Source: Candidatus Stygibacter australis (lineage in GTDB: Bacteria > Cloacimonadota > Cloacimonadia > Cloacimonadales > TCS61). Taken from it: a stretch of DNA of 64,000 nucleotides. Position 1 is the stretch's first letter, and every line of letters starts with the position of its first letter. Under the pieces are notes generated by a model. That model searched no databases and was not told the origin of the DNA. It worked only from the letters and a program-made list of their open reading frames with translations. Made by a program: the position numbers and the translations under genes. Of the stretch, positions 9,509-63,163 are shown one piece after another. Where the stretch lies: assembly GCA_030765845.1 (NCBI GenBank), contig JAVCDJ010000203.1, positions 83,947-147,946 of the forward strand, in the 5' to 3' direction.

Positions 9509-9759
9509 TCTATCAAGCGATTACTGAATAGAAAATATCATCTCATCAGCCTATGATAACCAGTTTTCTTCCCAAAATGTTAAAAACCGATAAAATCATA
9601 GAGTATCAATACACATGTTATAGTATAATAATAATGAATTATAAGCTCAAAACACTAAAATCAAAACCTAATCCATATTTTGCATAGATTTTGCTATACT
9701 TTCATAATATAACCACCTGATAATAAACTATTTAACAACTATAACCTGCCCTTAAACCA

Positions 9760-9811
9760 GAACAACAAGGCACAATCTAACATAAAAATGTCAGTACGTG
9801 CTTTGTTGTTC
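9760..9811 (+). repeat. Family-H hairpin element, copy H1
   Basis: GAACAACAAGGCAC-AATCTAACATAAAAATGTCAGTAC-GTGCTTTGTTGTTC, 233 nt upstream of nrdJ. Confidence 0.85.
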
Positions 9812-9940
9812 AATTTATAATCCTGTCAAAATATATGAAGATACGGGCGTACCACATGGGAAAATGTGAAATATAGGTTATATTGAGCGTGATGTCTGAT
9901 AATTTGTTATTATCGACTCGGAAAAAGGGAAAAAATTGGT

Positions 9941-16944: not shown

Positions 16945-18438
16945 CTATTTAATTAACAGCATTTTATTTGCTGCTTTTTTTTCTCCGTTTGTCATCAGTT
17001 GGTAATAATATACCCCGCTGCCAACTAATGCACCTGCTTGATTTTTCCCATCCCAAATGATTTCTCCTGATTTACCGTTTATTACTCCTTCGTGTGCTAT
17101 TTTTAATTCTCTAACTTTTTGCCCTTTAATATTTGATATTTCAATAATTGTGTTTTCTAAATTGCTATCTATTTCATACTTAATTGTGGTTATTGGATTG
17201 AAAGGATTAGGATAATTACTTAGTCTTTGTTTAATACCGGGTAATTCATTATTATCTACTATCAAATTTCCTTCTTCATCAACTCTTAGTAAAACAAATT
17301 CAGGAAAGAGACATTGTCTGTCCGTTGTTCCGCAATAAATAATATCTCCGTTTATATGTTCAAAGCCTTTCTTATCTTCCTTGCCAATCCAATCAGGATA
17401 GGCAGGACTATTTTCCAGATAATTCCTGCTCCACAATACTTCTCCATCAAATGTTACTTTATGAATTTCTCCTTCTTCTGCGTTGAAAGTTATTAATATA
17501 TTACTGTCGTTAAGTTTAAGAAGTCTTGATGTATTTGATTGATCATAAAATGGTGTCAAAATATCATATTCTTCTAACAGCATTCCAGAAATATTATACT
17601 TTAACAAAAAACCTCGACCTCGTACATAATCCGATTGCCAAGAGAAAGTAAATAAAGTATCTTCATCATACTCTAGCAGACTTGAAAACATTGCGTTTTC
17701 TCGCGTTTTTGTCCATAGAGTGTCTCCTTCTGAATTAAATTTCATCAATGTTCCCCAAAAGGGATTATATGTCTTGAAGCCGCATGTCAAAAATCCACCA
17801 TCTGATGTTTGAATTATTGTATTCATTTCAGGTGGATATTCTCCATTTATCATCAGGTCATAGCCACATTTATACCAGATGATATTACCATCAAAATCTG
17901 TTTTCATTATAGAAGGTGAGGGATAATTATCTGCCATACCTGCCATTATCAAGCCATCTTCTATTATCTGCATGGAATTTATTGTAACACGTAGTGAATC
18001 AATATCCCAATAATTATGTGTTGAAATCAAACCACAATTCTCATCAAGAATATAGAGCACTCTCGGGAAGGTGTATCCGCCTCCTCTTCCTCCTATAGCA
18101 TAATACCTGTCCACTTCGTTAGATACTAATGAACCGAAATAATTACTGAATATTGAAGCATCCTGAACCCGCCATTCCATTTCACCTTCTTCCGATATTT
18201 TCCAGAACATACTCTGTGGTTCTGAATAAAACTCATAGCCAGGTGTTACATAAGCATTTAATAAAAAGCCTCCACCAATTGCTGGTATCACATTGCAACT
18301 CCCGTCACGATAGGAATAAGCAAAATATTCTTCAAAAAGATCACGATACGGATAGCTGTTAAAAAAAGTCGGCTCAGCTTCTAAGAATAAAGTAACACAA
18401 AGTATTATAATTATAATAATAATGATATTTCTGGGCAT
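16945..18438 (-). CDS. Secreted protein (beta-propeller-like, function unknown) with T9SS/FlgD-Ig-type C-terminal domain
   Basis: The ORF track starts at 18483. I prefer ATG 18438 (GGAGGA 5 nt upstream; the product starts MPRNIIIIIIIILCVTLF). The C-terminus is YPNPFNPITTIKYEI...GSGVYYYQLMTNGEKKAANKMLLIK. Confidence 0.7.
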   Translation of the reverse strand: MPRNIIIIIIIILCVTLFLEAEPTFFNSYPYRDLFEEYFAYSYRDGSCNVIPAIGGGFLLNAYVTPGYEFYSEPQSMFWKISEEGEMEWRVQDASIFSNYFGSLVSNEVDRYYAIGGRGGGYTFPRVLYILDENCGLISTHNYWDIDSLRVTINSMQIIEDGLIMAGMADNYPSPSIMKTDFDGNIIWYKCGYDLMINGEYPPEMNTIIQTSDGGFLTCGFKTYNPFWGTLMKFNSEGDTLWTKTRENAMFSSLLEYDEDTLFTFSWQSDYVRGRGFLLKYNISGMLLEEYDILTPFYDQSNTSRLLKLNDSNILITFNAEEGEIHKVTFDGEVLWSRNYLENSPAYPDWIGKEDKKGFEHINGDIIYCGTTDRQCLFPEFVLLRVDEEGNLIVDNNELPGIKQRLSNYPNPFNPITTIKYEIDSNLENTIIEISNIKGQKVRELKIAHEGVINGKSGEIIWDGKNQAGALVGSGVYYYQLMTNGEKKAANKMLLIK

Positions 18439-18523
18439 AATGTTCCTCCTATTCATTTTGTTATTCATCATATCATAGTTCATTTGTTCACAATCTCCAT
18501 TTTCTTGTCAACATTTATTCAAC

Positions 18524-18580
18524 CTTACTAAGCAGGAGTTTTGCACAGTACCCCGGACAATGCTTCTGGCGACAGTTGAT
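18524..18580 (+). repeat. Family-C repeat (diverged relative of family B), copy C1
   Basis: CTTACTAAGCAGGAGTTTTGCACAGTACCCCGGACAATGCTTCTGGCGACAGTTGAT, about 80% identical to 38332-38390. The CTTAGTAAG end is 12 nt from the minus-strand TTGACA (18506-18511). Confidence 0.7.
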
Positions 18581-18590
18581 TTCCCATTCT

Positions 18591-18623
18591 GTCCATATTA
18601 TCCATTAAGTCCATCACGTCCAT
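18591..18623 (-). repeat. 9-bp-phased TGGAC array, copy D1
   Basis: Minus strand reads ATGGACgtgATGGACttaATGGATaatATGGAC. It lies upstream of C1 and the TTGACA box of the 16945-18438 gene. Confidence 0.85.
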
Positions 18624-24578: not shown

Positions 24579-24711
24579 TTTTCACCTCTATCGTATTTTC
24601 TTAAGATTATGTTTAAGTAGTCAAGTAAATTCAGTGTTCTGATTTTATCCTGAAATTTACTAATCAGCATTAGGTTAGAGCTACCTGAAATCAGCTTGCA
24701 ATCAGCAGGCA

Positions 24712-24764
24712 GAACAACTTAGCATAATCTAACAAAAAAATGTCAATATGTGCTTTGTTGTTCC
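24712..24764 (+). repeat. Family-H hairpin element, copy H2
   Basis: GAACAACTTAGCAT-AATCTAACAAAAAAATGTCAATA-TGTGCTTTGTTGTTCC, followed by TCCTGATAATTTTCC. Confidence 0.85.
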
Positions 24765-24875
24765 TCCTGATAATTTTCCGGAACTGGCACCTCTCGACTT
24801 CTACTAATACTACACTTTGTTAAAATAGATGATAAATTAAAGTGTTGGAATAAAGAAGATAGATTTACACTTTCT

Positions 24876-25240
24876 TCACGTATCCCCCCCCCCAAAAATT
24901 ACAAATACACCTCAATTAACCATATTTAACATAGTGAATTATGAAATTAGAAGCAAAAATAGAAATGTAGATCATTTAACTACGAAGATGAATTTTATGA
25001 TAGAAATAATAATATATCTGGTACAAAACTTAAGTAATAAAATGATATACAGGAATTTGGCAAAAGAATTGAATAAAAATTTGGCATATAGGTTATCGAA
25101 TATCGTATCAGAACTTTTTAGGGGATTCTTAGTTAGACCAAGAAATAGACATAAGGGTAAGTACAAGAAATATTATCTGGAAAAGCTACAGTATAGGCTG
25201 GTGTTAAATGATAATTAAAAAAGGGGGGGGGGATGCGTGA
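24876..25240. repeat. 365-bp element bounded by 18-bp inverted repeats TCACG(T/C)AT-C10 / G10-ATGCGTGA
   Basis: Left arm 24876-24893 (C10 at 24884-24893). Right arm 25223-25240 (G10 at 25223-25232). One mismatch. The 329-bp interior is extremely AT-rich. Possible MITE or invertible segment. Confidence 0.8.
24934..25218 (+). CDS. Hypothetical 94-aa Lys/Asn/Arg-rich protein inside the IR-bounded element (may be non-coding)
   Basis: ORF track only. GTG start, no convincing SD, very low GC. Confidence 0.2.
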   Translation: MNYEIRSKNRNVDHLTTKMNFMIEIIIYLVQNLSNKMIYRNLAKELNKNLAYRLSNIVSELFRGFLVRPRNRHKGKYKKYYLEKLQYRLVLNDN

Positions 25241-25305
25241 TCTAATATTTTAGTTGACAGATATAAGCATTTTCTTTAAAAGAAATCCAAATATAGGAGG
25301 TGCAT

Positions 25306-25924: not shown

Positions 25925-26003
25925 ATAGGTTTTATACGTCCTATATGACCTATAATATAACCACTTATCTAATCAAACTCACCTATAGATCAGTGAGTGA
26001 GAA

Positions 26004-26055
26004 GAACAACAAAACACGCCCCATAAATAAATGTCAGTATGTGCTTCGTTGTTCC
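26004..26055 (+). repeat. Family-H hairpin element, copy H3 (most diverged)
   Basis: GAACAACAAAACAC-GCCCCATAAATAAATGTCAGTAT-GTGCTTCGTTGTTCC, followed by TCCTGATAATTTCC. Confidence 0.75.
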
Positions 26056-38261: not shown

Positions 38262-38331
38262 GGTGGAAATCTGATTCGTTTTTACTACAAATAAATAAGC
38301 ACTACGTGCTAAAATAAACCACATTTCACCC

Positions 38332-38390
38332 CACTTAGCAGGAGTTTTGGCTGGTATTCCAGACAAGACTTCTGGGGGCGACCGTTATCA
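38332..38390 (+). repeat. Family-C repeat, copy C2
   Basis: CACTTAGCAGGAGTTTTGGCTGGTATTCCAGACAAGACTTCTGGGGGCGACCGTTATCA, about 80% identical to C1. No gene or TTGACA box faces its CTTAG end. Confidence 0.7.
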
Positions 38391-39153: not shown

Positions 39154-39237
39154 ATAATTTATAATTAAATACCTCTAAGAATCCCTCTATTGATATCAAT
39201 GATCCACCTCAGACCACCCTGCTTCTGCCATTGAGGA

Positions 39238-39290
39238 GGAACAACAAAGAACTATCTAACATAAAAATGTCACTATGTGCTAAGTTGTTC
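39238..39290 (+). repeat. Family-H hairpin element, copy H4
   Basis: GGAACAACAAAGAAC-TATCTAACATAAAAATGTCACTAT-GTGCTAAGTTGTTC. Confidence 0.85.
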
Positions 39291-39396
39291 TAGTTATATA
39301 CTGGATATATGCCTAAAGAAATGGTGTATAGGGATTTATCTATATTTTGAGGGTTTGGGGGTGGAAAAGCAGGATAAAAACTATAAATTGTAAATA

Positions 39397-52095: not shown

Positions 52096-52266
52096 TCCCT
52101 CAAAAGTTAGATTTACCAGAACAACTGTTTCCTAATTAAATAGTTGAATTTTATCCAAAAATACCCACTAACCCGAAATTTCCCTGATTCCTCCCATTTC
52201 CCCCGTATTTTAACCCTAAAATATCCCTATTCCCCCTATCTACAAACAATTTACAGGATTTAAGGA

Positions 52267-52320
52267 GGAACAACTTAGCACTATCTAACAAAAAAATGTC
52301 ACTATGTGCTTTGTTGTTCC
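52267..52320 (+). repeat. Family-H hairpin element, copy H5
   Basis: GGAACAACTTAGCAC-TATCTAACAAAAAAATGTCACTAT-GTGCTTTGTTGTTCC. Confidence 0.85.
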
Positions 52321-52333
52321 ACTTCCAAGTGGC

Positions 52334-52384
52334 TTCATAATTAGTATAAAATATACGTTAATCATCGGAAAAAGTGAAAAATGG
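52334..52384 (+). repeat. 51-nt module TTCATAATTAGTATAAAA.A.ACGTTAA.CATC.GAAAAAGT.AAA, copy 1
   Basis: About 85% identical to 60406-60455 in the same orientation. The two copies bracket the 52-60 kb island. Confidence 0.8.
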
Positions 52385-52415
52385 AATTTCAGGGGAATTA
52401 CTCAGATTGAGAATT

Positions 52416-52448
52416 ATGGACAATATGGACGGAATGGACATGATGGAT
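52416..52448 (+). repeat. 9-bp-phased TGGAC array, copy D2
   Basis: ATGGACaatATGGACggaATGGACatgATGGAT, 21 nt upstream of TTGACA (52470-52475). Confidence 0.85.
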
Positions 52449-52469: not shown

Positions 52470-52499
52470 TTGACAGGCGGCTTAAGTTTTAGCTATTTG
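52470..52499 (+). promoter_or_regulatory. Promoter candidate for the AbiL-like operon
   Basis: TTGACA (52470-52475), 18-nt spacer, then TATTTG (52494-52499), 40 nt before the ATG. Confidence 0.35.
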
Positions 52500-52538: not shown

Positions 52539-53915
52539 ATGATAATTAGTTTTTCTGTCAGCAATTTTCTTTCCATAAAGGAAGAGCAGGTTTTAAGTTT
52601 TGAGGCAAGCAGTGATGAGAGTTATAATGAATACTTTATCCGGGAAATCGGCAAATACAGGCTTCTTAAGATGGGAATCATTTATGGGGCAAATGCCTCT
52701 GGCAAGACCAATATTTTAAAAGCACTCGATGTTCTAAGACAGCTTGTGACAAGATCACGTGATGCAGATAAGGATATATATTACACTCCGTTTTTATTTG
52801 ATGATGAATATAAGACGGGAAACTGCAAAATGAAGCTTGAGTTTCTGGTAGGGGATGAGGGTAAATATGTAAAACACATTTATGAACTGGAATTTAATGC
52901 CAAAGAAATAGTAAATGAGTCTTTGAAATATTATCCAGGCCAGCAGCCGGCTATGATTTATAATAGGGTAAAAAATACAAATCTGGAGAGGGGGTACACG
53001 TTAAAATTTAGTAATGGTTCAAAACCTAAATCAGAGGAGCAGAATATTCTGGAAAGCAGTACTTTGATCAATAATACAATATTATCAGCTTTTAATAAAG
53101 TGAATCCCATAATTCCCAAAACGAAACGTGTGAGAAAATGGTTTGATTACTACATGACACGGTTGTTATCACAGGAAAATAAAGCTGATGAGAAAACAGC
53201 TGATGTTTTTTTTAAGAAATCCATACAGAGACAGGGAATTTTAAATGAATTTATAAAAAAAGCTGACTATAATGTTTCTAAATTTATTATTTCAGAAGGA
53301 AATTGGAAATTTACAGAAGATAGAAAAGATTTTGCATTAAAATTTGGTGAATTAATTTATTCCTTAGATGAGTCAAACTCTGCGATGTCAAATTGGAAAA
53401 ACCAAATTGATAAAATAACTCAATTACCAATTACAAAAAAAGAACTTAGTCATGTTTACAAGGTTAAGGGAGAATTAAAGGAGGGTAATTTACCATATCT
53501 GCTGGAGTCAAATGGGACTAAACGGAGTTTTGAATTGGCAGCGCCACTTATAGAGAATTTAATGAAGGGTAAAATAATGATATTAGATGAGATAGAATCT
53601 TCACTTCATTTTGATTTAGTGAAATATATCATATTAGTATTTCTGGCAAATTCTGAGAATTCGCAGATGCTTTTTACTACCCATAATCTTCTTTTGCTGG
53701 ACTGGGATATCTTACGTCATGATGTTATCTGGTTTACAGAGAAGAAAGAAGATGGCTCAACAGACTTATATTCTCTGGCAGACTTTAAGGAATTGAATCG
53801 TAGTAATATATTGAAAAGATACTTAAGTGGTCAGTTTGGAGCAAAACCAGACATCTATGATTATAAGCTGAATCTGCAGGATCTGAAAGAGGATAGCAGT
53901 GGCAAGAAAAATTAA
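52539..53915 (+). CDS. AAA_21/ABC-type ATPase (AbiLi/RloA-like)
   Basis: 458 aa. Walker A GANASGKTN, Walker B IMILDEIESSLH, H-loop TTHN. Overlaps the downstream RloB-like gene by 17 nt. Confidence 0.7.
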   Translation: MIISFSVSNFLSIKEEQVLSFEASSDESYNEYFIREIGKYRLLKMGIIYGANASGKTNILKALDVLRQLVTRSRDADKDIYYTPFLFDDEYKTGNCKMKLEFLVGDEGKYVKHIYELEFNAKEIVNESLKYYPGQQPAMIYNRVKNTNLERGYTLKFSNGSKPKSEEQNILESSTLINNTILSAFNKVNPIIPKTKRVRKWFDYYMTRLLSQENKADEKTADVFFKKSIQRQGILNEFIKKADYNVSKFIISEGNWKFTEDRKDFALKFGELIYSLDESNSAMSNWKNQIDKITQLPITKKELSHVYKVKGELKEGNLPYLLESNGTKRSFELAAPLIENLMKGKIMILDEIESSLHFDLVKYIILVFLANSENSQMLFTTHNLLLLDWDILRHDVIWFTEKKEDGSTDLYSLADFKELNRSNILKRYLSGQFGAKPDIYDYKLNLQDLKEDSSGKKN

Positions 53916-54513
53916 AAAGCGGAAATTAGAGAAAAAAATTTTGATCCTGGGCGAAGGAACCAGTGAGCAATCGTATTTTATAGAAATGAAAGAATCAGAG
54001 CATCTCAGTTATACTATTAAACCTGAATTGCCTAAGAACTCCAATTATGATACTATTTTCAAAAAGGCGGAAAACGAAGCAGAATATTACTTAAAGGTAT
54101 TTTGTCTAATAGACTTAGATTATATCATCAGGGATGGATTGTATTCAGAATATAATAATTATAAGCAGAAATTACAAAGAGAAAATAAGAATGTACAGAT
54201 ATTTGAGAATTATCCCTGCCTGGAAACCTGGTTTGCCTTTCACTATGCGTATTTCAGCAGAGAATTTGCATCCTGTAAAGACCTGATAAATGAATTTTTA
54301 AATATCAAAAATCGCTTAATGGATTATAAAAAGGGAGCCAGTTCCAGGAAATATTATAATCAACTAAAACCGTATCAAAATGAAGCAATTATAAGAGCTG
54401 AAAGAACTTTTCAAAATAGATCGAATGGGATTGCTGAAAATCTCTACCGAGTGAACGATTGCCAGGTGGCATTTACCGAAATATATCTGATTATCAGGGA
54501 ATTATTGAGCTAA
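53899..54513 (+). CDS. RloB-like (TOPRIM-related) protein (AbiLii-like)
   Basis: 204 aa. GTG start 5 nt after AAGAGGA. N-terminal ILILGEGTSEQSYF and internal CLIDLDY match the RloB family pattern as I know it. Confidence 0.65.
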   Translation: MARKIKKRKLEKKILILGEGTSEQSYFIEMKESEHLSYTIKPELPKNSNYDTIFKKAENEAEYYLKVFCLIDLDYIIRDGLYSEYNNYKQKLQRENKNVQIFENYPCLETWFAFHYAYFSREFASCKDLINEFLNIKNRLMDYKKGASSRKYYNQLKPYQNEAIIRAERTFQNRSNGIAENLYRVNDCQVAFTEIYLIIRELLS

Positions 54514-54572: not shown

Positions 54573-54595
54573 TTAGTGGATTTAGTGGTTGATAA
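54573..54595 (+). repeat. TTAGTG(N3)TTAGTGGTT(G/A)AT(A/G)A motif, copy 1
   Basis: TTAGTGGATTTAGTGGTTGATAA, compared with 60611-60633 TTAGTGACATTAGTGGTTAATGA. In both places TTTGTTTTGTGGACGGA and ATACTTGACT follow downstream. Confidence 0.7.
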
Positions 54596-55105
54596 ACTTT
54601 TTTTTAGAACCACGAAAAACGCGAAAGGACGGGAATAATAATCAGTTATTTTTATAAGATGATTTGTCTTTACATTTTTTTTGTTTTGTGGACGGAGTGC
54701 CAATAATAATTACCTGTATTAAAAAAAATACTTGACTGGGAATATTTTTTATATTCGTTTGTCTCTGGTTAGACAAAGAGTTGGCTTATTGGGAATGTAA
54801 TATTTTGAATCAATGTTGTTTTAAAGATTGAAATTACATGATGTGGAGTCTATACTATATGAAATAACATAATTGTAATTTACGTGATTCAGAGAATATG
54901 AGAGTCATCTAGGATATAATAAAGATAAATCCAAAGTACTAATTGAGATTTATGGATGTTGTTTCCCCGTTATATAGCTAGATATTTCAAAGATTTGAGG
55001 AGGGTTTTATTGATACTTTCACAAATCTTTGAAAGTAGCTTTATTAGCATTAATTAAGTACTAAAAAAATAGGTGAAACAAAAAAGAAAGAAAAGGAGTT
55101 GAACG

Positions 55106-55813
55106 ATGGAAAACACTGATTTAAAAATCGGATTAGCAATGTTAGAGGATGTTGAAAATGACTTAGAAGCAACATATGGTAATGTTCTTGCCTGGGGACC
55201 TATTACAAGTATCGAAGGCTTTAATGGAAGAGGAGCAACACAAAGGCTGACAAAAGATTTGAAAGTTGCTAAAAAGAAAATTGGCGATTTCCAACAAGGT
55301 CAAGCAAAAGCAGCCTTTTTAATGGGAAGAATTTGTGCTGTTGGTGTGGGTAGAGATTTTAGCCATCGGATACACCTTAAATGTATGAAATATTATGAAG
55401 AAGCAATTGAATTAGGTTATGATGAAGCGATAGTGAAGTATTGTATGGCTAAACATAAAGATGCCTGGGATAAAAAGAAGGCATCTATTGAACTTTACGA
55501 GAGAGTTGTAGAATTAATGGGGATTGATAATCCCAATGGAATGGATTCAGCAAAGCAAATAGAAAAACTTAAATCAAAAAAAGGTTGTTTCATTGCGACA
55601 GCAGTATATGGTTCCTATTCTGCACCTGAAGTCATAGTGTTAAGAAGATTTAGAGATGACATTTTATTACCTTCGCAAATTGGAAGTATTTTTGTAAAAT
55701 TCTATTATCTTACTTCACCGCCTATTGCGAGGTTTTTAGAGAAACATAAACTTCTGCAGAAATTTGTCCGAGATTTTATAATTCAGCCTATTGTGAATTT
55801 GTGTAAAAAATAA
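55106..55813 (+). CDS. Hypothetical protein: Sel1/TPR-like N-terminal part and a C-terminal GCFIATAxYGS-type conserved domain
   Basis: 235 aa. SD AAGGAG. No signal peptide. C-terminus KKGCFIATAVYGSYSAPEVIVLRRFRDDILL...FVKFYYLTSPPIARFL is a recurrent domain of unknown function that I recognise by motif only. Confidence 0.6.
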   Translation: MENTDLKIGLAMLEDVENDLEATYGNVLAWGPITSIEGFNGRGATQRLTKDLKVAKKKIGDFQQGQAKAAFLMGRICAVGVGRDFSHRIHLKCMKYYEEAIELGYDEAIVKYCMAKHKDAWDKKKASIELYERVVELMGIDNPNGMDSAKQIEKLKSKKGCFIATAVYGSYSAPEVIVLRRFRDDILLPSQIGSIFVKFYYLTSPPIARFLEKHKLLQKFVRDFIIQPIVNLCKK

Positions 55814-55838
55814 TAATTAATCTATTTATGGAGGGAAA

Positions 55839-56696
55839 ATGGATAAAATTCAAGAAGTGATCGATGAGATTATAGAAGAACCATATACGATGGCATTTTG
55901 CTATAATTGTGGAACAGAAAATCAAGATGCAGAAGAAAATGATATATGTAAAAACTGTGGGGAAAAAATATCACTATCAATTAATGAATTAAAAGGAAAA
56001 ATCAAGCGATATTGCCGAGAATGCGGAGAGCAAATTAATGAATCAGAGGATTATTGTTTAGCTTGTGGTATGGATATAGAATTGTCTACTGAAGATTTGC
56101 TCTGCATGGTATTGTTAGAACTTATTGAAGAAGAAGACCGTAAAGATGCTCTTGAATTCGGTAAGAATTTACTTGAATATCTAGAAGGTCATTATCAAAG
56201 GTTTGTGGCTTCAGGTTTTATGAAATCAATATACGGTGAATTATTTGTAGAGAAGTTTGGAAATTCATCTCCTGATCTTACTTTTGCACAAATACCTGAT
56301 AGTGAGTTAAATGATGATATTTTCGCAAGCATACTAGAATATTCTCAAATTACAATCGAAGAATTTAACCAACTTCCATCAAAAAGAAAGCAGATTCTTG
56401 AAAAATTTCCATTAAGAAGGAAAATGATTCAAGATATGAAGACAATTTGTTATGAAGGACCAATTGAGTTGGCTAAACGTGGTTTAACTAATAAATCAAA
56501 CAATCCCCAAGCTACAAAAAAAACTTATAAATATTCATCACATGGTTCATTTCAGGGTTCAAAAGGTATACTTATACTTTGGGGAAGTTTAACATTAATT
56601 TCTTTAATTTGCTTAATTGCTGGTTTGGGGGGGCTCTTCTCTATGATATTGTTTGGTGCAATAACTTACTATTATTGGAAATCGAAAACAATATAA
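55839..56696 (+). CDS. Double zinc-ribbon protein with a C-terminal two-helix membrane anchor
   Basis: 285 aa. SD GGAGGG. CYNCG...CKNCG and CRECG...CLACG. C-terminus GILILWGSLTLISLICLIAGLGGLFSMILFGAITYYYW. Confidence 0.6.
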   Translation: MDKIQEVIDEIIEEPYTMAFCYNCGTENQDAEENDICKNCGEKISLSINELKGKIKRYCRECGEQINESEDYCLACGMDIELSTEDLLCMVLLELIEEEDRKDALEFGKNLLEYLEGHYQRFVASGFMKSIYGELFVEKFGNSSPDLTFAQIPDSELNDDIFASILEYSQITIEEFNQLPSKRKQILEKFPLRRKMIQDMKTICYEGPIELAKRGLTNKSNNPQATKKTYKYSSHGSFQGSKGILILWGSLTLISLICLIAGLGGLFSMILFGAITYYYWKSKTI

Positions 56697-56752
56697 TTAT
56701 TTAGAGGAGTTTAAATAACATTTATCAAATCAGGTGATAGATGTAAAATTGT

Positions 56753-56781
56753 AAGAATTGCAGAATATTTCTGCAATTCTT
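56753..56781 (+). terminator. Perfect 13-bp-stem hairpin after the zinc-ribbon gene
   Basis: AAGAATTGCAGAA-tat-TTCTGCAATTCTT. No strong U-tract. Confidence 0.45.
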
Positions 56782-56906
56782 CGCAAAATAACTTACACAG
56801 TGTATTTGAGCAAGGATTTAATCCTGACAGGTCAATTCCATCAAAATGTGTGGGCAAGGTAAGTTAAGTGTATTAAGTGAAAAATTATTAACAAGGAGAA
56901 ATTATT

Positions 56907-57077
56907 TTGAGCAAACCAAAATCCAAAACAACAAATTATAGTGGCATCTCAGATGCACTTTCCGGAACCAAAACCTATAAGACGAAAATTTCCGATGGGA
57001 AAAAAAGTGTATCTGCATTAGGATCGCCAAAGACTTCACAAAAGCGAGCTTCAGATAAGTGGAATAAAAAGAAGTAG
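56907..57077 (+). CDS. Small basic Lys/Ser/Thr-rich protein (56 aa), not in the ORF track
   Basis: TTG start 7 nt after AAGGAGA. My translation: MSKPKSKTTNYSGISDALSGTKTYKTKISDGKKSVSALGSPKTSQKRASDKWNKKK. Confidence 0.35.
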   Translation: MSKPKSKTTNYSGISDALSGTKTYKTKISDGKKSVSALGSPKTSQKRASDKWNKKK

Positions 57078-57253
57078 AACAAAATTACTTATGAAAACGA
57101 GTTAAAATAAGTTTAATCGAATAATAGACTAAATTAACTGATTTATTTTCTGCATGAAGAATTTGAATATTGATCATAATATTCTCATAGTATAATCCTG
57201 ATTATCGGGAATTAAGATTTGGGATTAATCAGTTTGGCATGTAAAAATGAAAC

Positions 57254-57811
57254 ATGGAGGGTATCTTGAAAAGAAAGATTTATTGTTTATTGGTGCTTGT
57301 GTTATTAATCTTAGGTTGCACAGAAGATACTACAACCGAAGTAACAGTTCAAGATAATAATGCAGATCAAGTATATAATATATCACCACAATCCGGATTG
57401 ATTGGAAACGTGGATCTGTATTTAATACCGGAAACTATACAAGGATCTGCAATAGTTATTATTAATGGACCAGGCAGTGCAATAGGATATGATATCCGTG
57501 ATGCTGAAGACCAGGCATTTATATATTTTGCGGATAGTTATATTGCAGCTGGAGGTTCATCGTTGCAATCAGGGACAATTTTACCAACAAACAGGTGGGT
57601 AAAAATAAGATTAGTCCTTTATGAATCCGGGCTTGCTGGTTGGATTGTCACGTTTTTACAGTATCTTGGATTAGATTTCTTCGATAGTCTGGAAGATTAT
57701 ATGATTGCTGAAGTATATGAGATAGATGTAATGCTCGAAGATAATAGAGGAGGGCAGAAAATCATAAAAGGTGTTTGGCAGGAAATAACAGATCAAATAA
57801 AAAACAAATAG
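57254..57811 (+). CDS. Lipoprotein of unknown function
   Basis: 185 aa. Lipobox LLILGC. An in-frame TTG at 57266 (4 nt after GGAGGG) is an alternative start. Confidence 0.6.
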   Translation: MEGILKRKIYCLLVLVLLILGCTEDTTTEVTVQDNNADQVYNISPQSGLIGNVDLYLIPETIQGSAIVIINGPGSAIGYDIRDAEDQAFIYFADSYIAAGGSSLQSGTILPTNRWVKIRLVLYESGLAGWIVTFLQYLGLDFFDSLEDYMIAEVYEIDVMLEDNRGGQKIIKGVWQEITDQIKNK

Positions 57812-57820
57812 GAGGGAATG

Positions 57821-57997
57821 ATGTCAGCTACAGTTATTGGGAGAGTAAAATCCGGAAGTTATAAGTCTTATGAAGTGAAATGGGATTCAGCAAGCAAGGA
57901 TACTTATGTGTCTTATGCTGGCTGGACAAGCGTAGGAAAAGCTTATTCTGCCGGTGAAGCTATGAATAAAGCTGAAGCTTTTTTGTATAATAAATAA
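57821..57997 (+). CDS. 58-aa hypothetical protein, not in the ORF track
   Basis: ATG 4 nt after GGAGGG, which overlaps the upstream stop. MSATVIGRVKSGSYKSYEVKWDSASKDTYVSYAGWTSVGKAYSAGEAMNKAEAFLYNK. Confidence 0.45.
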   Translation: MSATVIGRVKSGSYKSYEVKWDSASKDTYVSYAGWTSVGKAYSAGEAMNKAEAFLYNK

Positions 57998-58007
57998 GGA
58001 GAATAAA

Positions 58008-58106
58008 ATGCTATATGTATTGATAATAATAAATATTATTGTTGTAAATTATGTGACTATTTTCAAGAAGATATCTCCACAAAAAGAGCAGAAAATGATT
58101 TCGTAG
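58008..58106 (+). CDS. 32-aa single-TM micro-protein, not in the ORF track
   Basis: ATG 4 nt after AAGGAGA. MLYVLIIINIIVVNYVTIFKKISPQKEQKMIS. Confidence 0.35.
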   Translation: MLYVLIIINIIVVNYVTIFKKISPQKEQKMIS

Positions 58107-58196
58107 AATAAGCAGACAAGGCACGAATTGACCTTTCTCTGGAGAGGATTTAGCGAATAATCATAATAGTGAATTAAGTCAAATAGGATTGTTTAA

Positions 58197-58529
58197 ATGA
58201 TAAATGTTTATAAACCGTTTGGTGGTCATCTGGGTTTCAGGAAAGATAATGATGTCTTCATATCCGGTGGATTATTTGGTCAGGGGCGCAAAATAGGGGA
58301 GATAAAAGGCAATGATATTTACTCAATAGGTGTATTATTTGGTAAAACAAAACTTGGTTATGTTTCAGGAAATTACGTCTATACAACCTTCGGGAGCCTG
58401 TTTGGTGCAAGTAAGGTTGGGGTTATAGTTGGAAAAGATATATATGATACAAATAGAAATCACTTAGCTCATATGGATGCTGCTGACCCGCAATTAGGGG
58501 CAGCAACTATTTTGTTACTGATAAAATAA
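58197..58529 (+). CDS. 110-aa protein with three internal ~20-aa Gly-rich repeats
   Basis: LFGQGRKIGEIKGNDIYS / LFGKTKLGYVSGNYVYT / LFGASKVGVIVGKDIYD. Weak SD. Confidence 0.5.
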   Translation: MINVYKPFGGHLGFRKDNDVFISGGLFGQGRKIGEIKGNDIYSIGVLFGKTKLGYVSGNYVYTTFGSLFGASKVGVIVGKDIYDTNRNHLAHMDAADPQLGAATILLLIK

Positions 58530-58547
58530 CCAATTTAGGGAGATTGA

Positions 58548-60371
58548 ATGGAAAATACCGATAAGATTAAATCTTTGTATGAAAAAGGAAGCAAGCTGGT
58601 TGAGGAAGATCAAACAGAGGAAGCTATTGCGATTTTTAATGAAATAATATCTTTGGATCCAGGATTTTACAAAGCATATTTTCAAAGAGCACATTTGTAT
58701 ATGTCTTCGGGTGATATTGATAATGCTATCAGTGATTTTAGTGCTGGGCTAGAAATTAAACAAGATGCTTATGCCTATTTGTTAAGAGCATCTGCATACG
58801 ATACCAAAGAAATGTTTGAGCAGTCATCAAGAGATTATAGCAAGGTAATTAAACTTGAATCTGATCCTGGCATCCTGTATTTTGCCCATTTGAATCGCGG
58901 GTCAGCATTCAATTATTTAGAGAGATATTCGGAAGCTGTTGAAGATTTCACAAAAGCTATGGAAATAAATCCGGAAGATCCCAAAGCATTTAGAGGAAGA
59001 GCCATTGCTTACTTTCATCTTAACCAGATTGATAAATCAATAGATGACTGGTCAACCGTGATAAAGCTAACGCCTGATGACGCAGAACCTTATAAAAAGA
59101 GAGCTTCCTTATATTTTCAGATTGATAGATCTATAGATGCAATTAAGGACTCTACTAAATCAATTGAGCTTGATCATAATGATATTGAGTCCTATATAAT
59201 CCGGGGTTCCTCCTATCTTAAAGAAAGTGATGTCATAAAAGCAAAAACAGATCTGCAATTCGCTAAAAATAAGGGAAATGAAGCAGCAGCTCAACTTTTA
59301 ATAGAGATCGATATGATGTTTGATGTAGATACTTTGCTCGAAAAGGGTAATAAGGCTCTGCTGGAAAAAGATTATGAAAGTGCCTTCAATCATCTATCCA
59401 AGGCACAGGCGGTCTCTAATGCGCCCAATGTTCTAACGTCATTAGCAACTGCCTTAAAGCACCTTGGCAGATTTGAAGATGCCATATTCTGTTTAGAAAA
59501 AGCTTTAAACGAAACTTCAGATCCGGAAACACTGGGTTCGGTCACTTATAATTTAGGGAATATTTTCCGGGAAACAGACAGATTTGAGGATGCCATCAAG
59601 TGGTATATCAAATCAATTAAATTCCGCCCTGATCATATAGGCGTACACTATAATCTTGGAATGTCTTATGAAGCAATCGAAGAACATGACCTCGCTATAA
59701 AAGAATTGGAGACAGTTTTACAGATAGATCCCAAACTGAATGACGTAAGAAGCCGGATTGAACTCATCAAAGAAACCGGGAATGATATCCGAAGTGAAAA
59801 AATACCGGATAGTGCGGGTGATTCACATTTTCTGCCGGAAAATAAAGAGCTTAGAGAAAATATAGCTCGTGCTACAGAAATGTGTGCCAGGGACGATGAA
59901 TTCGAAGAGATAATTTTCCATTTAGAAAAGATATTGAAAATTGATCCTGAGTGCAGTGATCCTGAGTTTTTACTTGTTGCTTGTATTGTATATAGCGGAA
60001 TTGCCTTGAAGTTGAAGGATTTTTCGCCAGAAGCTAAAAATGCCGTAAAATTTGGCAGAAAATTGCTGGCTATTGAAGAAAAGAAATCCAATCCATCTGA
60101 TGATATATTATTTTCAGCTTATCGAGCTCTATTATTGGGTTATTTTAGACTTAATGAATATGATCAGGCAAAGGAATTTGGCACAAAAGCATTAAAGATT
60201 ATACCGGATTCTGAAGTCATAATAAAATTGATGGAGTGGCTGCAGGCAAATAGGACCAGTGAAGATACTATCCCCTCAATTCAAACTCCTGCCAAGCCCA
60301 AAGCAGGATGTCTCGGGACAATATTTTTGATGTTGTTTTATTGCTCATGTTTTTTATATTTGTTATTATAA
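58548..60371 (+). CDS. TPR-repeat protein with a C-terminal Cys + hydrophobic tail anchor
   Basis: 607 aa with more than 10 TPR units. C-terminus PAKPKAGCLGTIFLMLFYCSCFLYLLL. The N-terminus MENTDKIK resembles that of the 235-aa protein (MENTDLKI). Confidence 0.7.
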   Translation: MENTDKIKSLYEKGSKLVEEDQTEEAIAIFNEIISLDPGFYKAYFQRAHLYMSSGDIDNAISDFSAGLEIKQDAYAYLLRASAYDTKEMFEQSSRDYSKVIKLESDPGILYFAHLNRGSAFNYLERYSEAVEDFTKAMEINPEDPKAFRGRAIAYFHLNQIDKSIDDWSTVIKLTPDDAEPYKKRASLYFQIDRSIDAIKDSTKSIELDHNDIESYIIRGSSYLKESDVIKAKTDLQFAKNKGNEAAAQLLIEIDMMFDVDTLLEKGNKALLEKDYESAFNHLSKAQAVSNAPNVLTSLATALKHLGRFEDAIFCLEKALNETSDPETLGSVTYNLGNIFRETDRFEDAIKWYIKSIKFRPDHIGVHYNLGMSYEAIEEHDLAIKELETVLQIDPKLNDVRSRIELIKETGNDIRSEKIPDSAGDSHFLPENKELRENIARATEMCARDDEFEEIIFHLEKILKIDPECSDPEFLLVACIVYSGIALKLKDFSPEAKNAVKFGRKLLAIEEKKSNPSDDILFSAYRALLLGYFRLNEYDQAKEFGTKALKIIPDSEVIIKLMEWLQANRTSEDTIPSIQTPAKPKAGCLGTIFLMLFYCSCFLYLLL

Positions 60372-60405
60372 GAAATCACTGTCATCCAGTTAAGCATTAA
60401 GTAGG

Positions 60406-60455
60406 TTCATAATTAGTATAAAACTTACGTTAAGCATCAGAAAAAGTAAAAGAAG
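60406..60455 (+). repeat. 51-nt module TTCATAATTAGTATAAAA..., copy 2
   Basis: TTCATAATTAGTATAAAACTTACGTTAAGCATCAGAAAAAGTAAAAGAAG, compared with 52334-52384. Confidence 0.8.
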
Positions 60456-60466
60456 AACTTGCACAG

Positions 60467-60510
60467 CTAACGGTACTCCGGAAGTGGGGCGAGAACTACG
60501 TGCAGTTATC
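60467..60510 (+). repeat. Partial family-B repeat (inverted relative to B3)
   Basis: CTAACGGTACTCCGGAAGTGGGGCGAGAACTACGTGCAGTTATC shares GGTA.T.C.GGAAGTGGGGCG with the family-B core. Confidence 0.5.
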
Positions 60511-60561
60511 AGCAGCAATTCATATTATTACCTTCTTCTTTTTCAGGGATTTGTTGGTAGC

Positions 60562-60618
60562 GGTCGTTATCTGCGCCCCACCTGGAAATACCCGGCGGTG
60601 CACATATAACTTAGTGAC
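60562..60618 (-). repeat. Family-B intergenic repeat, copy B3
   Basis: Reverse complement is GTCACTAAGTTATATGTGCACCGCCGGGTATTTCCAGGTGGGGCGCAGATAACGACC. Its CTTAGTGAC end points toward the 60782 gene. Confidence 0.8.
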
Positions 60619-60646
60619 ATTAGTGGTTAATGATCTTCTTTGTTTT

Positions 60647-60679
60647 GTGGACGGAATGGACAGGGTGGACGGTGTAGGA
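60647..60679 (+). repeat. 9-bp-phased TGGAC array, copy D3
   Basis: GTGGACggaATGGACaggGTGGACggtGTAGGA, 32 nt upstream of TTGACT (60712-60717). Confidence 0.8.
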
Positions 60680-60781
60680 AGACTTAAAAAAGCTGATGGA
60701 TAAGATTATACTTGACTAATTATCACACATAAATCTAATTTATAAAGAGTATTAAAAATAAACGATTAAACGAAGGGAAAA

Positions 60782-63163
60782 ATGTTATTACGATGTGTGC
60801 TGACTGTTATTTTTTTAAATGCAATAAATGTACTATTTTGCCAGGTAGTGATAAATGAGCTGTATTATGATCATCCAGGTGGTGATGATGGTGAGGAATG
60901 GGTGGAATTATATAATACCAGCAGTGAAGCGATCAATCTTGAGTATTGGAGAATCGAAAAGGGAGGGAGTGAGTTTGAAACTGTTTTGTTTCTTCCGTTT
61001 ATCATAATCGAAGGAAATGGATATTTACTTATTGGTGAATCTAATGTGCCGGGTGCAGATATTTACGCTGAACTGGTTTTTCAAAACGGAGGTAGCACTA
61101 CGGATGGGGTAAGGTTGGTATCTGGTTTCGGTCCCTGGACAGATACAGTTCTTTATGATTCACCAAATTCTAATGAGCTTATCGATGATACGGGGTTTGC
61201 CGGGGTCAGTTTTGCTCCAGATGTGACAGCAGGACATTCGCTGGGTAGAATCCCCAATGGATATGACAGCAATCAGGGAAGTGACTGGCAGGAATGTGAA
61301 AATCTTAGTCCCGGGACAGCTAATATAATCAGCATTGATCTGGAGATCAGCGAGGCGGAGTTAACGTTAATTGATGGCAATATTTGCTTATACACAGTGG
61401 TCCATAATCTATCCACAGGGGGTGTGGATAACTCTGTAGGCAGCCTTGATATTTACTTTAATAATCAACCATTTGAGAGTTTGCCGATAAACGAAATATC
61501 AGGAAATGAGAGTCTGGAATACAGTTATGAATTAGGCGAATCAGTAGCTGGATACTCTCAGACAGAATTAATCATTAACTCCATATATGACAATAACTTG
61601 GAAAACAATATATCAGGATGCTCGATCCTTATTGAAATGAGTCCCTTGTGGTATAATGAATTGATGATCAAGCCTTTAGGAAATGACTGTGAATGGGTGG
61701 AGATAATTGTTGATAACTATGTGGATAACTTTGTGGATAACTTGTATATTCGTGATGCTGTGGGCAATACAGGGAGTTTTGCTGCTGCTGATCTGGGGGA
61801 AGGATTTCTGGTGATATGTGATGAGCCGGAAAGTTTGATAGCTAATTATGGACTTACTGCAAGTCAGGTGATAGAGAGTGAACAATTGCCTGGAATGAAT
61901 AATGAAGGAGATATACTATATCTGGAAGATGAGTGGGGAACGCTGCTGGATATGGTGGAATATGGTGCCCTAGCAGGAAATGAAGAGGGAATAAGCTGGG
62001 AAAGGATCAATCCTCTATCAGATGATAGCGACTGGGGGCATTGCATTAGTGAATCTGGTCAAACTGCGGGATATGCTAACAGTCTGATGCAGGGAATGAT
62101 CGATCTGGCGCTGGATTTGAAGGGGGTTAATCTGCAGGAAGAATATCTGGAGCATCATCTGCTGGTGACCAGTGCGGGAATTGAACAAGTGGATGATGCT
62201 GAGCTGGTGATAAGCTGGCAGGTGTTTTCAGGCGGAAATTATGGAAGCTATTCAGAGAATATAATAATTGATTCTGACAGTTTGGAAATTGTAATAAACA
62301 CAGAACTGCCGGGCAGTGGGTTTTATGAATACACCTATCAGCTGGAGGTAGAGGGCGATACAGATCTGAGCAATAATGTAGTAGTGAATTATTTTAATCA
62401 GGGTAGTCTGGGCTGGGTGATCAATGAGATCATGTATCACCCGAAAGCCGGGGAGCCGGAATGGCTGGAACTTAAGAGGAATGTGGGATATGGCATGGCA
62501 GATAATTTATGGGTAATAGTGGATGATGACAGCTGTGAGATCGCTGCTGCGGGAGAATATGTAATTGTAACCGGATCAGAATCTGATGTGGAGGAGATGT
62601 GGGGATTATATGGAGAGGATCTGGAAATATCTGAGGGATTGAAGAGGCTAACTGATAGTGGCTGTGAGATAGGTATAAAAGATATGTATGGCAATATAAT
62701 AGAATTATTCAGCTATGATCCAGACTGGAACCAGTCAATTCAGGGAGTATCCATTGAACGGGTAAATCCGCTTTTACCGGCGAGTGAAGACAACTGGAGC
62801 CGCAGTGTGTCAGAATGCACTCCCGGAGAAGCAAACAGCATTTATACAGAATTACCAGTGACAGGATCGAAATTGACTATCACTCCAGAGGTATTTTGTC
62901 CGAGGGATGGTGAACATACAGTGATCAGTTATCAAAACAGCGAGAATCTTAATCTGGTGAGAATAGCTATCTATGATCTGAAAGGGCGAAAGATATGTAA
63001 ATTAGTTGATCATGAATACCAGGGAGCCAATGGGTATTACATCTGGGACGGAAGAAATGAAGCAGGTAAAATCGTAAAAATGGGAATTTACATAATCCTT
63101 TTTGAGACTTCAGCAGCAGGTAATATAAAAGTAGAGAAAAAGACGGTAGTAGTAAAAAGATAG
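60782..63163 (+). CDS. Secreted protein with three lamin-tail domains (LTD) and a FlgD-Ig/T9SS-type C-terminal domain
   Basis: 793 aa. LTD signatures VVINELYYDHPGGDDGEEWVELYNTS, LWYNELMIKPLGNDCEWVEII and WVINEIMYHPKAGEPEWLELKRN. C-terminus VRIAIYDLKGRKICKL...YIWDGRNEAGKIVKMGIYIILFE. Confidence 0.7.
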   Translation: MLLRCVLTVIFLNAINVLFCQVVINELYYDHPGGDDGEEWVELYNTSSEAINLEYWRIEKGGSEFETVLFLPFIIIEGNGYLLIGESNVPGADIYAELVFQNGGSTTDGVRLVSGFGPWTDTVLYDSPNSNELIDDTGFAGVSFAPDVTAGHSLGRIPNGYDSNQGSDWQECENLSPGTANIISIDLEISEAELTLIDGNICLYTVVHNLSTGGVDNSVGSLDIYFNNQPFESLPINEISGNESLEYSYELGESVAGYSQTELIINSIYDNNLENNISGCSILIEMSPLWYNELMIKPLGNDCEWVEIIVDNYVDNFVDNLYIRDAVGNTGSFAAADLGEGFLVICDEPESLIANYGLTASQVIESEQLPGMNNEGDILYLEDEWGTLLDMVEYGALAGNEEGISWERINPLSDDSDWGHCISESGQTAGYANSLMQGMIDLALDLKGVNLQEEYLEHHLLVTSAGIEQVDDAELVISWQVFSGGNYGSYSENIIIDSDSLEIVINTELPGSGFYEYTYQLEVEGDTDLSNNVVVNYFNQGSLGWVINEIMYHPKAGEPEWLELKRNVGYGMADNLWVIVDDDSCEIAAAGEYVIVTGSESDVEEMWGLYGEDLEISEGLKRLTDSGCEIGIKDMYGNIIELFSYDPDWNQSIQGVSIERVNPLLPASEDNWSRSVSECTPGEANSIYTELPVTGSKLTITPEVFCPRDGEHTVISYQNSENLNLVRIAIYDLKGRKICKLVDHEYQGANGYYIWDGRNEAGKIVKMGIYIILFETSAAGNIKVEKKTVVVKR

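Follow-up and report, generated by a model that had tools for sequence, protein, structure and literature searches.

RTGGAC arrays in nine-nucleotide register in Candidatus Stygibacter australis are members of a repeat family dispersed across bacterial phyla and phages

Introduction

A 64,000-nt stretch of the Candidatus Stygibacter australis genome (Cloacimonadota; GenBank assembly GCA_030765845.1, contig JAVCDJ010000203.1, positions 83,947 to 147,946 of the forward strand) contains three intergenic arrays of the hexamer RTGGAC (R being A or G). Successive hexamers are exactly 9 nt apart, and the trinucleotides between them vary. This stretch, at its full length, is referred to as the window. 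What reads such a hexamer, and is it read as DNA or as RNA? An earlier note on this DNA had taken the arrays for iterated protein-binding sites in front of promoters. It had also mentioned iterons, a GGA-rich leader of the CsrA/Rsm type and a tiny in-phase open reading frame (ORF).

The three window arrays belong to a dispersed repeat family that is widespread and, it appears, has not been described before. As the best explanation, which we hold tentatively, each of the iterated hexamers may be the recognition site for one subunit of a conserved nucleic-acid-binding protein that oligomerises along the array and is a candidate for a cis-effect on adjacent promoters.

Conservation of Hexamer and Register

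The phased dimer RTGGAYN3RTGGAY (Y being C or T) occurs 8 times in the window, compared to 0.12 +/- 0.33 times in shuffled sequences. The lone hexamer is not enriched (146 observed, 163 expected). When hexamer spacings from 0 to 21 nt are counted, N3 is found eight times, N12 five times and N21 twice, and each other spacing occurs at most once. Members of the family are defined by at least three RTGGA(C/T) units in exact 9-nt register, with unrelated spacers and outside any ORF in the matching frame, and all three window arrays have these properties. The presence of the arrays and their 9-bp phase, as described in the earlier note, were confirmed. Its count of four units per array is correct for arrays 1 and 3 but not for array 2, the fourth unit of which is degenerate; in array 3, an additional degenerate unit (ATGGGA, 18582-18587) had been missed.

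The combination of conserved hexamer, free spacer and fixed phase, on which the earlier note had based its interpretation, holds far beyond the window, in 195 arrays and in orthologous copies. A typical member has three to six (A/G)TGGAC copies exactly 9 nt apart, separated by purine-rich but otherwise free spacers. Among the 195 arrays, 77 have four units, 44 have three and 41 have five, with a range from 3 to 51. Hexamer positions 1 to 6 are R, T, G, G, A and C at about 98%. Position 1 is A in 41% and G in 58% of units, and neither C nor T exceeds about 1%. At the spacer positions, the commonest base reaches 47-57%; trinucleotides rank GGA > GGG > GAA > AGA, the rank of GGA being inflated by the GGA in the scan pattern (see below). 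Across the family, N3 is found 664 times, N2 only 6 times and N4 18 times.

Orthologous copies show how the two parts of the unit diverge. Between array 2 of the window and its counterpart in a strain variant (L006), none of 18 hexamer positions is variable, compared to 5 of the 19 next positions. In four related phage contigs, 0 of 18 positions vary in the hexamers and 4 of 12 in the spacers. The orthologue of array 3 from a second strain is identical and hence uninformative. Hexamer and phase are kept while spacers turn over, which is the signature expected of sequence-specific reading of iterated sites. A sequence-specific constraint on hexamer and register is firmly established.

The longest arrays come from two Chlorobiaceae contigs, L127 (1635-1940) and L138 (~1530-1990). 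They have 34 and 51 units, respectively, with nearly uniform gga spacers and a flanking lineage-specific GAATGTAAGA motif. These two arrays show recent slippage-type expansion.

Distribution across Phyla

When reference genomes (one genome per species) were scanned with RTGGACGGARTGGACNNNRTGGAY, at least 120 loci were found, compared to about 4 expected by chance according to our own estimate, which assumes uniform base composition. Nearly all of the matches listed, at 42-72% GC, fall in a restricted number of phyla, with those of the Planctomycetes-Verrucomicrobia-Chlamydiae (PVC) group among them. Verrucomicrobiota, Planctomycetota, Lentisphaerae/Victivallales, Kiritimatiellales and Omnitrophota are represented. 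Further matches listed are from Hydrogenedentota, Sumerlaeota, Chlorobi/Kapaibacteria, Latescibacterota and Zixibacteria, and from Nitrospirota, Nitrospinota, Acidobacteriota, Desulfobacterota and Polyangia. Among the matches listed, there are hardly any from Proteobacteria, Firmicutes, Actinobacteria and Bacteroidia, all of which are heavily sampled, and the few from Streptomyces and similar genomes appear to be coding coincidences. The RTGGAC unit is unchanged across phyla from 37% to 72% GC, and several arrays are found per 100 kb.

The bare four-unit pattern gave at least 119 matches in viral contigs, mostly coding repeats (collagen-like Gly-X-Y, acidic Met-Asp and perfect tandem repeats). 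It also gave noncoding arrays with unrelated spacers in high-GC contigs. Because the bare-pattern matches were mostly coding repeats, the GGA spacer was added to the scan pattern, at the price of a biased sample. The window arrays are not collagen-like or acidic Met-Asp coding repeats, as they are intergenic and have stop codons in the Gly-X-Y frame.

The GGGAATTA flank that is common to arrays 1 and 3 was rejected as a general feature: a metagenome scan gave 37 matches, mostly by chance, and did not return the window loci. Around arrays from different phyla, no conserved flank or target-site duplication was found. At the gathering scores of the families, an Rfam search of 20 array-bearing loci detected only a 6S RNA, away from the arrays, and in the window only a tRNA matched, with no family on the arrays. 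A BLAST search with an array against plasmid and phage records gave no match, probably owing to low-complexity filtering. No description of the arrays was found in the literature, for which open-access text was covered, so that an earlier description is possible.

Inverted Pairs, Orientation and Phage Arrays

About 40% of the arrays are part of convergent pairs (76/195 have at least two GTCCAY within 150 nt downstream, compared to 4 upstream). A forward array followed by a reverse array 1-90 nt further on was encountered 36 times, and the divergent arrangement not once (P = 3e-11). All window arrays are single, none forming an inverted pair. As single strands, the pairs fold to long hairpins (mean z = -7.8 compared to shuffles). 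Spacer complementarity between the arms of a pair is 100/297, compared to 99.5 +/- 7.3 from composition, and unit number is not the same in both arms. Both results argue for the importance of the hexamers and against that of an exact stem. The majority of arrays are found outside confident ORF cores.

Where a bacterial single array lies between two genes of the same strand, it is co-directional with them in 14 cases and anti-directional in 11. These gene calls are based on codon position, and the same approach reproduces the window genes. Across the family, TTGAC shows no enrichment, being found 11 times downstream and 14 times upstream of arrays. A promoter scan of the window predicted 41 sites, compared to 39.7 in shuffles. 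It did not pick the three TTGAC(A/T) boxes and, near array 2, proposed TTAAAA-17-TATACT ending at 60712 instead of the TTGACT box. As the scan is no richer than shuffles and the boxes were not chosen, those next to the arrays are consensus look-alikes only. The earlier note was right that each array faces a gene, and its distances to the TTGAC(A/T) boxes were reproduced (Table 1). A reading as operators of a local regulon tied to TTGAC promoters is not borne out by the family: TTGAC is not enriched elsewhere, bacterial arrays point either way, many are in convergent inverted pairs, and their neighbour genes are unrelated, with one exception (see below).

In phages (contigs with a portal, terminase or Mu-like transposase gene), there are 4-6 arrays per contig, which are single and intergenic. 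In four related phage contigs, L253 (~4960-5020), L260, L261 and L262, a hairpin consisting of ACGACGGAATGGACGCG, a loop and CGCGTCCCATTCCGTCGT is located about 60 nt downstream of the phage array. It contains one hexamer and its near-complement. The stem arms are identical in the four contigs, with one loop substitution in L261, and the flanking coding DNA is variable. In the high-GC contig L008, a CRISPR spacer between GTATTCCCCACGCACGTGGGGGTGAACCG repeats (4876-4908) is a whole four-unit array, ATGGACTGAATGGACCGGATGGACGGAATGGAC.

A Gene with a Built-In Inverted Pair

The single exception to the unrelated neighbourhood in bacteria is a gene found at about 15 of the 120 loci listed. Its product has a TIGR02436 four-helix-bundle domain and a TIGR04258 "suffix" domain (four-helix-bundle-suffix protein). 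The part of the protein that connects the two homology regions, (G-x-x)n ... (S-T-x)n, is encoded by a forward and a reverse array. Extra arrays are often found just upstream of the gene (forward) and at or after the C-terminus (reverse). The protein family comprises at least 8000 clusters. Members from Kiritimatiellia, Desulfobacterales and other groups are 65-76% identical to the query, which is from a Chthoniobacterales genome, and 114 of the best 120 homologues (95%) have the array-encoded linker.

At four loci, which were chosen by protein identity alone (34-62% GC), the linker DNA contains GTGGAC ... GTCCAC, retained also at 34-42% GC. At three of them, the gene is directly upstream of hsdR, overlapping its start, in a type I restriction-modification (R-M) operon; at the fourth, it lies between HsdS- and HsdR-like fragments. 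An inverted pair is built into this horizontally spread gene. At L161 and L210, the downstream neighbour of the four-helix-bundle-suffix gene resembles, by eye, the N-terminus of HsdM.

AlphaFold assigns a pLDDT below 50 to residues 134-151 (the linker), and the remainder is confidently helical. A loop predicted to be disordered would have little apparent need to be maintained for the protein, yet its DNA keeps the hexamers. In a fold search, the nearest structures were 2GSC, 2RLD and Avd, an accessory protein of diversity-generating retroelements (DGR); apart from Avd, only family members without assigned function were found. A sequence search with the protein against PDB gave no match. The structures of its closest relatives contain at least five chains as deposited.

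We speculate, as a long shot, that the RTGGAC arrays and the four-helix-bundle-suffix protein, a relative of Avd and of the "23S rRNA intervening-sequence (IVS) protein", are an unrecognised cis/trans pair. An oligomer would read about four to five hexamers in DNA or RNA and would have its own sites in the loop and flanks. The dispersed arrays would be landing pads through which an element travelling with R-M systems marks, regulates or recombines DNA across phyla. If true, such a pair would give a first function to a very large orphan protein family. Presumably, GGAGUGGAC resembles 23S rRNA next to the sarcin-ricin loop, a likeness that is not relied on here.

Proposed Reader and Alternative Explanations

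The subunits of the proposed reader would bind in a polar, cooperative row, one on each hexamer. On duplex DNA, subunits 9 bp apart would spiral round the helix, in the manner of ribbon-helix-helix (RHH) proteins with their 7-8-bp repeats. The non-complementary arm spacers, the unequal arms and the random bacterial orientation favour duplex DNA over a hairpin. A reader is further supported by the spread of the family, the constraint on the hexamers, the exclusively convergent pairs and the weak need of the four-helix-bundle-suffix protein for its linker. In the window, where -35-like boxes sit 21-79 nt downstream of the arrays, the bound protein might occlude or insulate these promoters. This is the weakest part of the proposal. 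The Avd-like four-helix-bundle family, whose own gene carries arrays, is a speculative candidate for the reader. A six-base word in exact 9-nt register, in a dozen phyla and in phages, implies a conserved reader. Its identification would explain intergenic repeats in poorly studied lineages, including the PVC phyla, Cloacimonadota-like organisms, Hydrogenedentota, Chlorobi and Acidobacteriota, and might provide a function for the "23S rRNA IVS protein" four-helix-bundle family with its thousands of members. It would also show why phages of such hosts set arrays between genes in one orientation.

Several points weigh against a reader of this kind. The sample of at least 120 loci is skewed to arrays with GGA spacers, as the scan pattern requires such a spacer, and the gene calls at high-GC loci are from crude heuristics of our own. 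Of the window ORFs scanned in the vicinity of the arrays, none gave a DNA-binding Pfam or NCBIfam domain. The link to promoters does not extend to the family, the window case consisting of three arrays and putative -35 boxes. Slippage expands arrays, as indicated by those with 34 and 51 units and uniform spacers, so that part of the pattern is repeat dynamics. No protein is common to all array-bearing phages, and a phage-encoded binder shared by them was rejected for this reason. Phage arrays are co-directional with both neighbours in 24 cases and anti-directional in one (P = 0.002 compared to bacteria). They often end 1-60 nt upstream of start codons. On both counts, the phage data are better explained by a role in RNA.

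It is unlikely, in our view, that an RNA role explains the arrays. On this view, (A/G)UGGACnnn arrays transcribed in sense, in a 5' leader or an intercistronic region, would be the target of an RNA-binding protein or would serve ribosomes as standby or initiation-like sites; convergent pairs would be long bubbled hairpins that function as processing or termination signals. Apart from the orientation and position of the phage arrays, several features would fit. Each unit holds AUG or GUG, its GGA precedes the start codon of the following unit by 4 nt, and position 1 is nearly restricted to A and G. Forward arrays are found directly upstream of several four-helix-bundle-suffix genes, pairs fold well beyond shuffles, and each of the three window arrays is in sense relative to the gene that follows. 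However, bacterial single arrays occur in antisense nearly as often as in sense, paired-arm spacers do not covary, single arrays are unstructured and no Rfam family matches. The window arrays lie upstream of the only -35-like boxes and may thus be outside the mRNA, and the phage bias could reflect selection against C-rich antisense or against hairpins in operons. The CsrA/Rsm-type GGA leader and the translated mini-ORF (MDxMDx...), both from the earlier note, are highly improbable. The units do contain GGA, each reads Met/Val-Asp-X in frame, and there is no stop codon inside the arrays. Nevertheless, Asp would be encoded by GAC in 9 of 11 GAY units, compared to 18% of Asp codons in the genome (P = 8e-6), and the three ORFs, which stop after 13, 18 and 31 codons, have tails unrelated to each other and no Shine-Dalgarno sequence ahead. 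This use of the minor Asp codon, together with putative peptides that share neither length nor tail, refutes the small-ORF reading. The codon bias also counts in favour of a sequence-specific constraint on the hexamer. The CsrA leader is unsupported rather than disproved. With 20-nt flanks, the arrays fold at z -1.1 to +1.2 and do not present GGA in a hairpin loop, no csrA/CsrA match was found in the window, which is part of the genome, and bacterial arrays occur in both orientations. To our knowledge, Chlorobi, which have arrays, lack the FliW-CsrA module.

A selfish or neutral dispersed repeat, similar to repetitive extragenic palindromic (REP) sequences and bacterial interspersed mosaic elements (BIME) or to Rickettsia palindromic elements (RPE), would be spread by phages and R-M cassettes and would not regulate adjacent genes. 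We consider this somewhat unlikely. It would persist in intergenic DNA and tolerant loops, its hexamer being kept as the target of propagation or recombination machinery, and in the window it would mainly represent recombination-prone junctions. Unrelated neighbour genes, random bacterial orientation, a mostly extragenic position and frequent palindromic pairs would be accounted for, as would a unit number that varies so widely. The same applies to the in-frame inverted pair in a predicted-disordered loop of an R-M-operon gene with such high identity across phyla. An array as CRISPR spacer, as in L008, is expected of a sequence on invading elements, and both junctions of the polymorphism between the window and L006 are in array modules (see below). 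On the other hand, no transposase, RAYT-like gene or target-site duplication is found beside arrays. Arrays of one genome differ in spacers and unit number, so that recent copying from a master element does not explain them. Even in old, diverged arrays, the hexamers are still present, and their persistence requires ongoing selection or a reader. The selfish repeat thus also needs a hexamer-reading protein and overlaps with the oligomeric reader that we prefer.

Comparison with Known Systems

In its arrangement, the family would seem to work most like the iterated operators and centromeres of RHH proteins. Examples of these are the 7-bp heptads of omega, the 8-bp metboxes of MetJ and the ACTC boxes of ParG with their 8-bp period. 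Shared features are a short conserved core, contiguous sites, a fixed sub-helical period, free spacers and 2-10 units in direct or inverted orientation; omega favours convergent over divergent sites. RHH sites are next to promoters, and the window arrays are 21-79 nt upstream of putative -35 boxes. In contrast, the arrays have a period of 9 bp and a core of 6 bp, occur several times per 100 kb and share one core across phyla. Promoter association is not family-wide, and no cognate RHH gene was found nearby, so that the likeness fails at the cognate gene.

The arrays resemble REP/BIME and RPE in distribution, as far as the analogy goes, but not in unit structure or lineage range. REP/BIME are likewise dispersed and extragenic, form inverted pairs able to fold into hairpins and contain a short protein-read motif. 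However, the REP unit is palindromic, species- or genus-specific and associated with RAYT, whereas the arrays are built from a non-palindromic tandem hexamer common to phyla. No RAYT-like gene or recurrent transposase-like neighbour was found among array-adjacent genes. RPE are palindromic repeats that also lie in frame inside coding genes at insertion-tolerant regions. They are 100-150 bp long, confined to one lineage and without phased hexamers, whereas the arrays are known from just one host gene family, at one fixed position.

The (G/U)AG repeats bound by TRAP in Bacillus trp leaders are similar in having short repeats and short free spacers, with one repeat per subunit of a ring oligomer and a repeat number comparable to the subunit number. 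They differ in being triplets at a 5-6-nt period that act only in RNA and in one regulon, while bacterial arrays occur in both orientations. Inverted pairs of Neisseria DNA uptake sequences (DUS) are short oriented words too, numerous between genes and frequently in head-to-head arrangement downstream of them, but these are single 10-12-mers of one bacterial family without tandem arrays.

The arrays are not iterons, DnaA-box clusters or small ORFs. Plasmid iterons are also direct repeats bound by a protein, but their units measure 17-22 bp and belong to a replication origin with an adjoining rep gene; the arrays share none of these features. The iteron idea of the earlier note is thus abandoned, with units of 9 bp and with AAA_21/RloB, lamin-tail-domain (LTD) and type IX secretion-tail proteins encoded in the flanks. 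DnaA binds 9-mers, TTATCCACA or, in high-GC taxa, TTGTCCACA, which are usually at least 2 bp apart, and GTCCAC matches the core of TTGTCCACA. In the arrays, the required A is A in only about 13% of units, ATGGAC breaks the CAC, and sites would abut without a gap.

Genomic Context in the Window

The coordinates of the arrays and associated features are compiled in Table 1.

Table 1. Arrays, TTGAC(A/T) boxes and array-2 modules in the window, and four-helix-bundle-suffix loci in other contigs.
Feature	Sequence	Positions	Strand	Description
Array 3	Window	18582-18623	-	ATGGAC/ATGGAC/ATGGAT/ATGGAC, then degenerate fifth ATGGGA; four intact units at 18591-18623, ATGGACgtgATGGACttaATGGATaatATGGAC
TTGACA box	Window	18506-18511	-	79 nt downstream of last intact unit of array 3; consensus look-alike
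Array 1	Window	52416-52448	+	ATGGAC/ATGGAC/ATGGAC/ATGGAT, spacers aat, gga, atg; ATGGACaatATGGACggaATGGACatgATGGAT
TTGACA box	Window	52470-52475	+	21 nt downstream of array 1; possible -35 element, consensus look-alike
Left array-2 module copy	Window	54573-54699	+	Upstream part TTAGTGGATTTAGTGGTT (54573-54590); cut after GTGGACGGAGTG
Truncated array	Window	54688-54699	+	GTGGACGGAGTG, ~1.3 units; cut end of left module copy, left junction of strain-variable segment
Strain-variable segment	Window	54700-60646		~6 kb, 31-36% GC; absent from strain variant L006
Right array-2 module copy	Window		+	Upstream part TTAGTGACATTAGTGGTT (60611-60628); ends in array 2
Array 2	Window	60647-60679	+	Intact GTGGAC/ATGGAC/GTGGAC, then degenerate GTAGGA; GTGGACggaATGGACaggGTGGACggtGTAGGA
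TTGACT box	Window	60712-60717	+	32 nt downstream of array 2; possible -35 element, consensus look-alike
Four-helix-bundle-suffix locus	L247	10001-10651
Four-helix-bundle-suffix locus	L248	3544-4194
Four-helix-bundle-suffix locus	L249	10001-10654
Four-helix-bundle-suffix locus	L250	10001-10669

All three window arrays are outside ORFs and face a downstream gene. For array 1, this is the AAA_21 gene of an AAA_21 and RloB pair, the start of which (52539) is 90 nt further downstream. For array 2, it is the LTD protein gene (start at 60782, 102 nt further downstream). Array 3 is located between divergent genes and faces the gene (16945-18483, minus strand) for a protein that has a type IX secretion-like FlgD_ig tail. 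As the arrays contain in-frame ATG and GTG codons, they confuse ORF callers.

Array 2 is part of a module that consists of TTAGTGrnATTAGTGGTTrAT, a T-rich stretch and then GTGGACGGARTG, of which the window contains two copies. The truncated unit at 54688, already seen in the earlier note, was confirmed and is the cut end of the left copy. The two copies bound the strain-variable segment, which codes for a CFI-box-CTERM protein, a zinc-ribbon protein and a TPR protein. Array 2 forms the right junction of this segment. In the strain variant L006, there is one hybrid module copy without the low-GC 6 kb. With both junctions in module copies and a hybrid in L006, the array module is a recombination junction of a variable gene cassette, and arrays mark such junctions in the Stygibacter genome. 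The scenario that the earlier note had considered fatal, arrays being only part of a larger repeat without promoter association, is partly realised: the family is dispersed, and array 2 lies in a duplicated module at a recombination junction. The first gene of the variable segment (55106-55813) codes for the CFI-box-CTERM domain protein. The AAA_21 ATPase and RloB pair (52539-54513), a putative defence module of the "restriction-linked ORF" type, adjoins the segment.

The intergenic regions around the window arrays are mosaics of other small dispersed modules. A 58-nt intergenic element occurs in five copies of the same orientation (9755-9812, 24707-24764, 25998-26055, 39234-39291 and 52263-52320), one of them about 95 nt ahead of array 1. 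A conserved loop (ATCTAACAnAAAAATGTCAnTAnGTGCT) is enclosed by a GAACAAC...GTTGTTC stem, and Rfam gave no match for the element. A 65-nt direct repeat (52327-52391 and 60399-60463, 82% identical), AAGTrGsTTCATAATTAGTATAAAA..TACGTTAA.CATC.GAAAAAGT.AAA, is found upstream of arrays 1 and 2. Its two copies enclose about 8 kb in which both the variable segment and the AAA_21/RloB genes lie. Another repeat, of 53 nt (74% identical), is located between array 3 and its TTGACA box (18517-18569) and, with no array beside it, at 38323-38375. This intervening module accounts for the longer distance of 79 nt at array 3.

Two further observations concern replication signals. At 24579-25299, the cumulative GC skew has its minimum and gene orientation changes, with the minus strand used before and the plus strand after, which resembles a replication origin. 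An AT-rich stretch of 329 nt has a C10 tract (24884-24893) on one side and a G10 tract (25223-25232) on the other. A replication origin at this minimum was rejected, as there is no DnaA-box cluster. Inside the lamin-tail-domain gene (61388-61740), there are three perfect TTATCCACA 9-mers (61423, 61720 and 61732, minus strand) together with three one-mismatch copies; the whole window has only four perfect copies.

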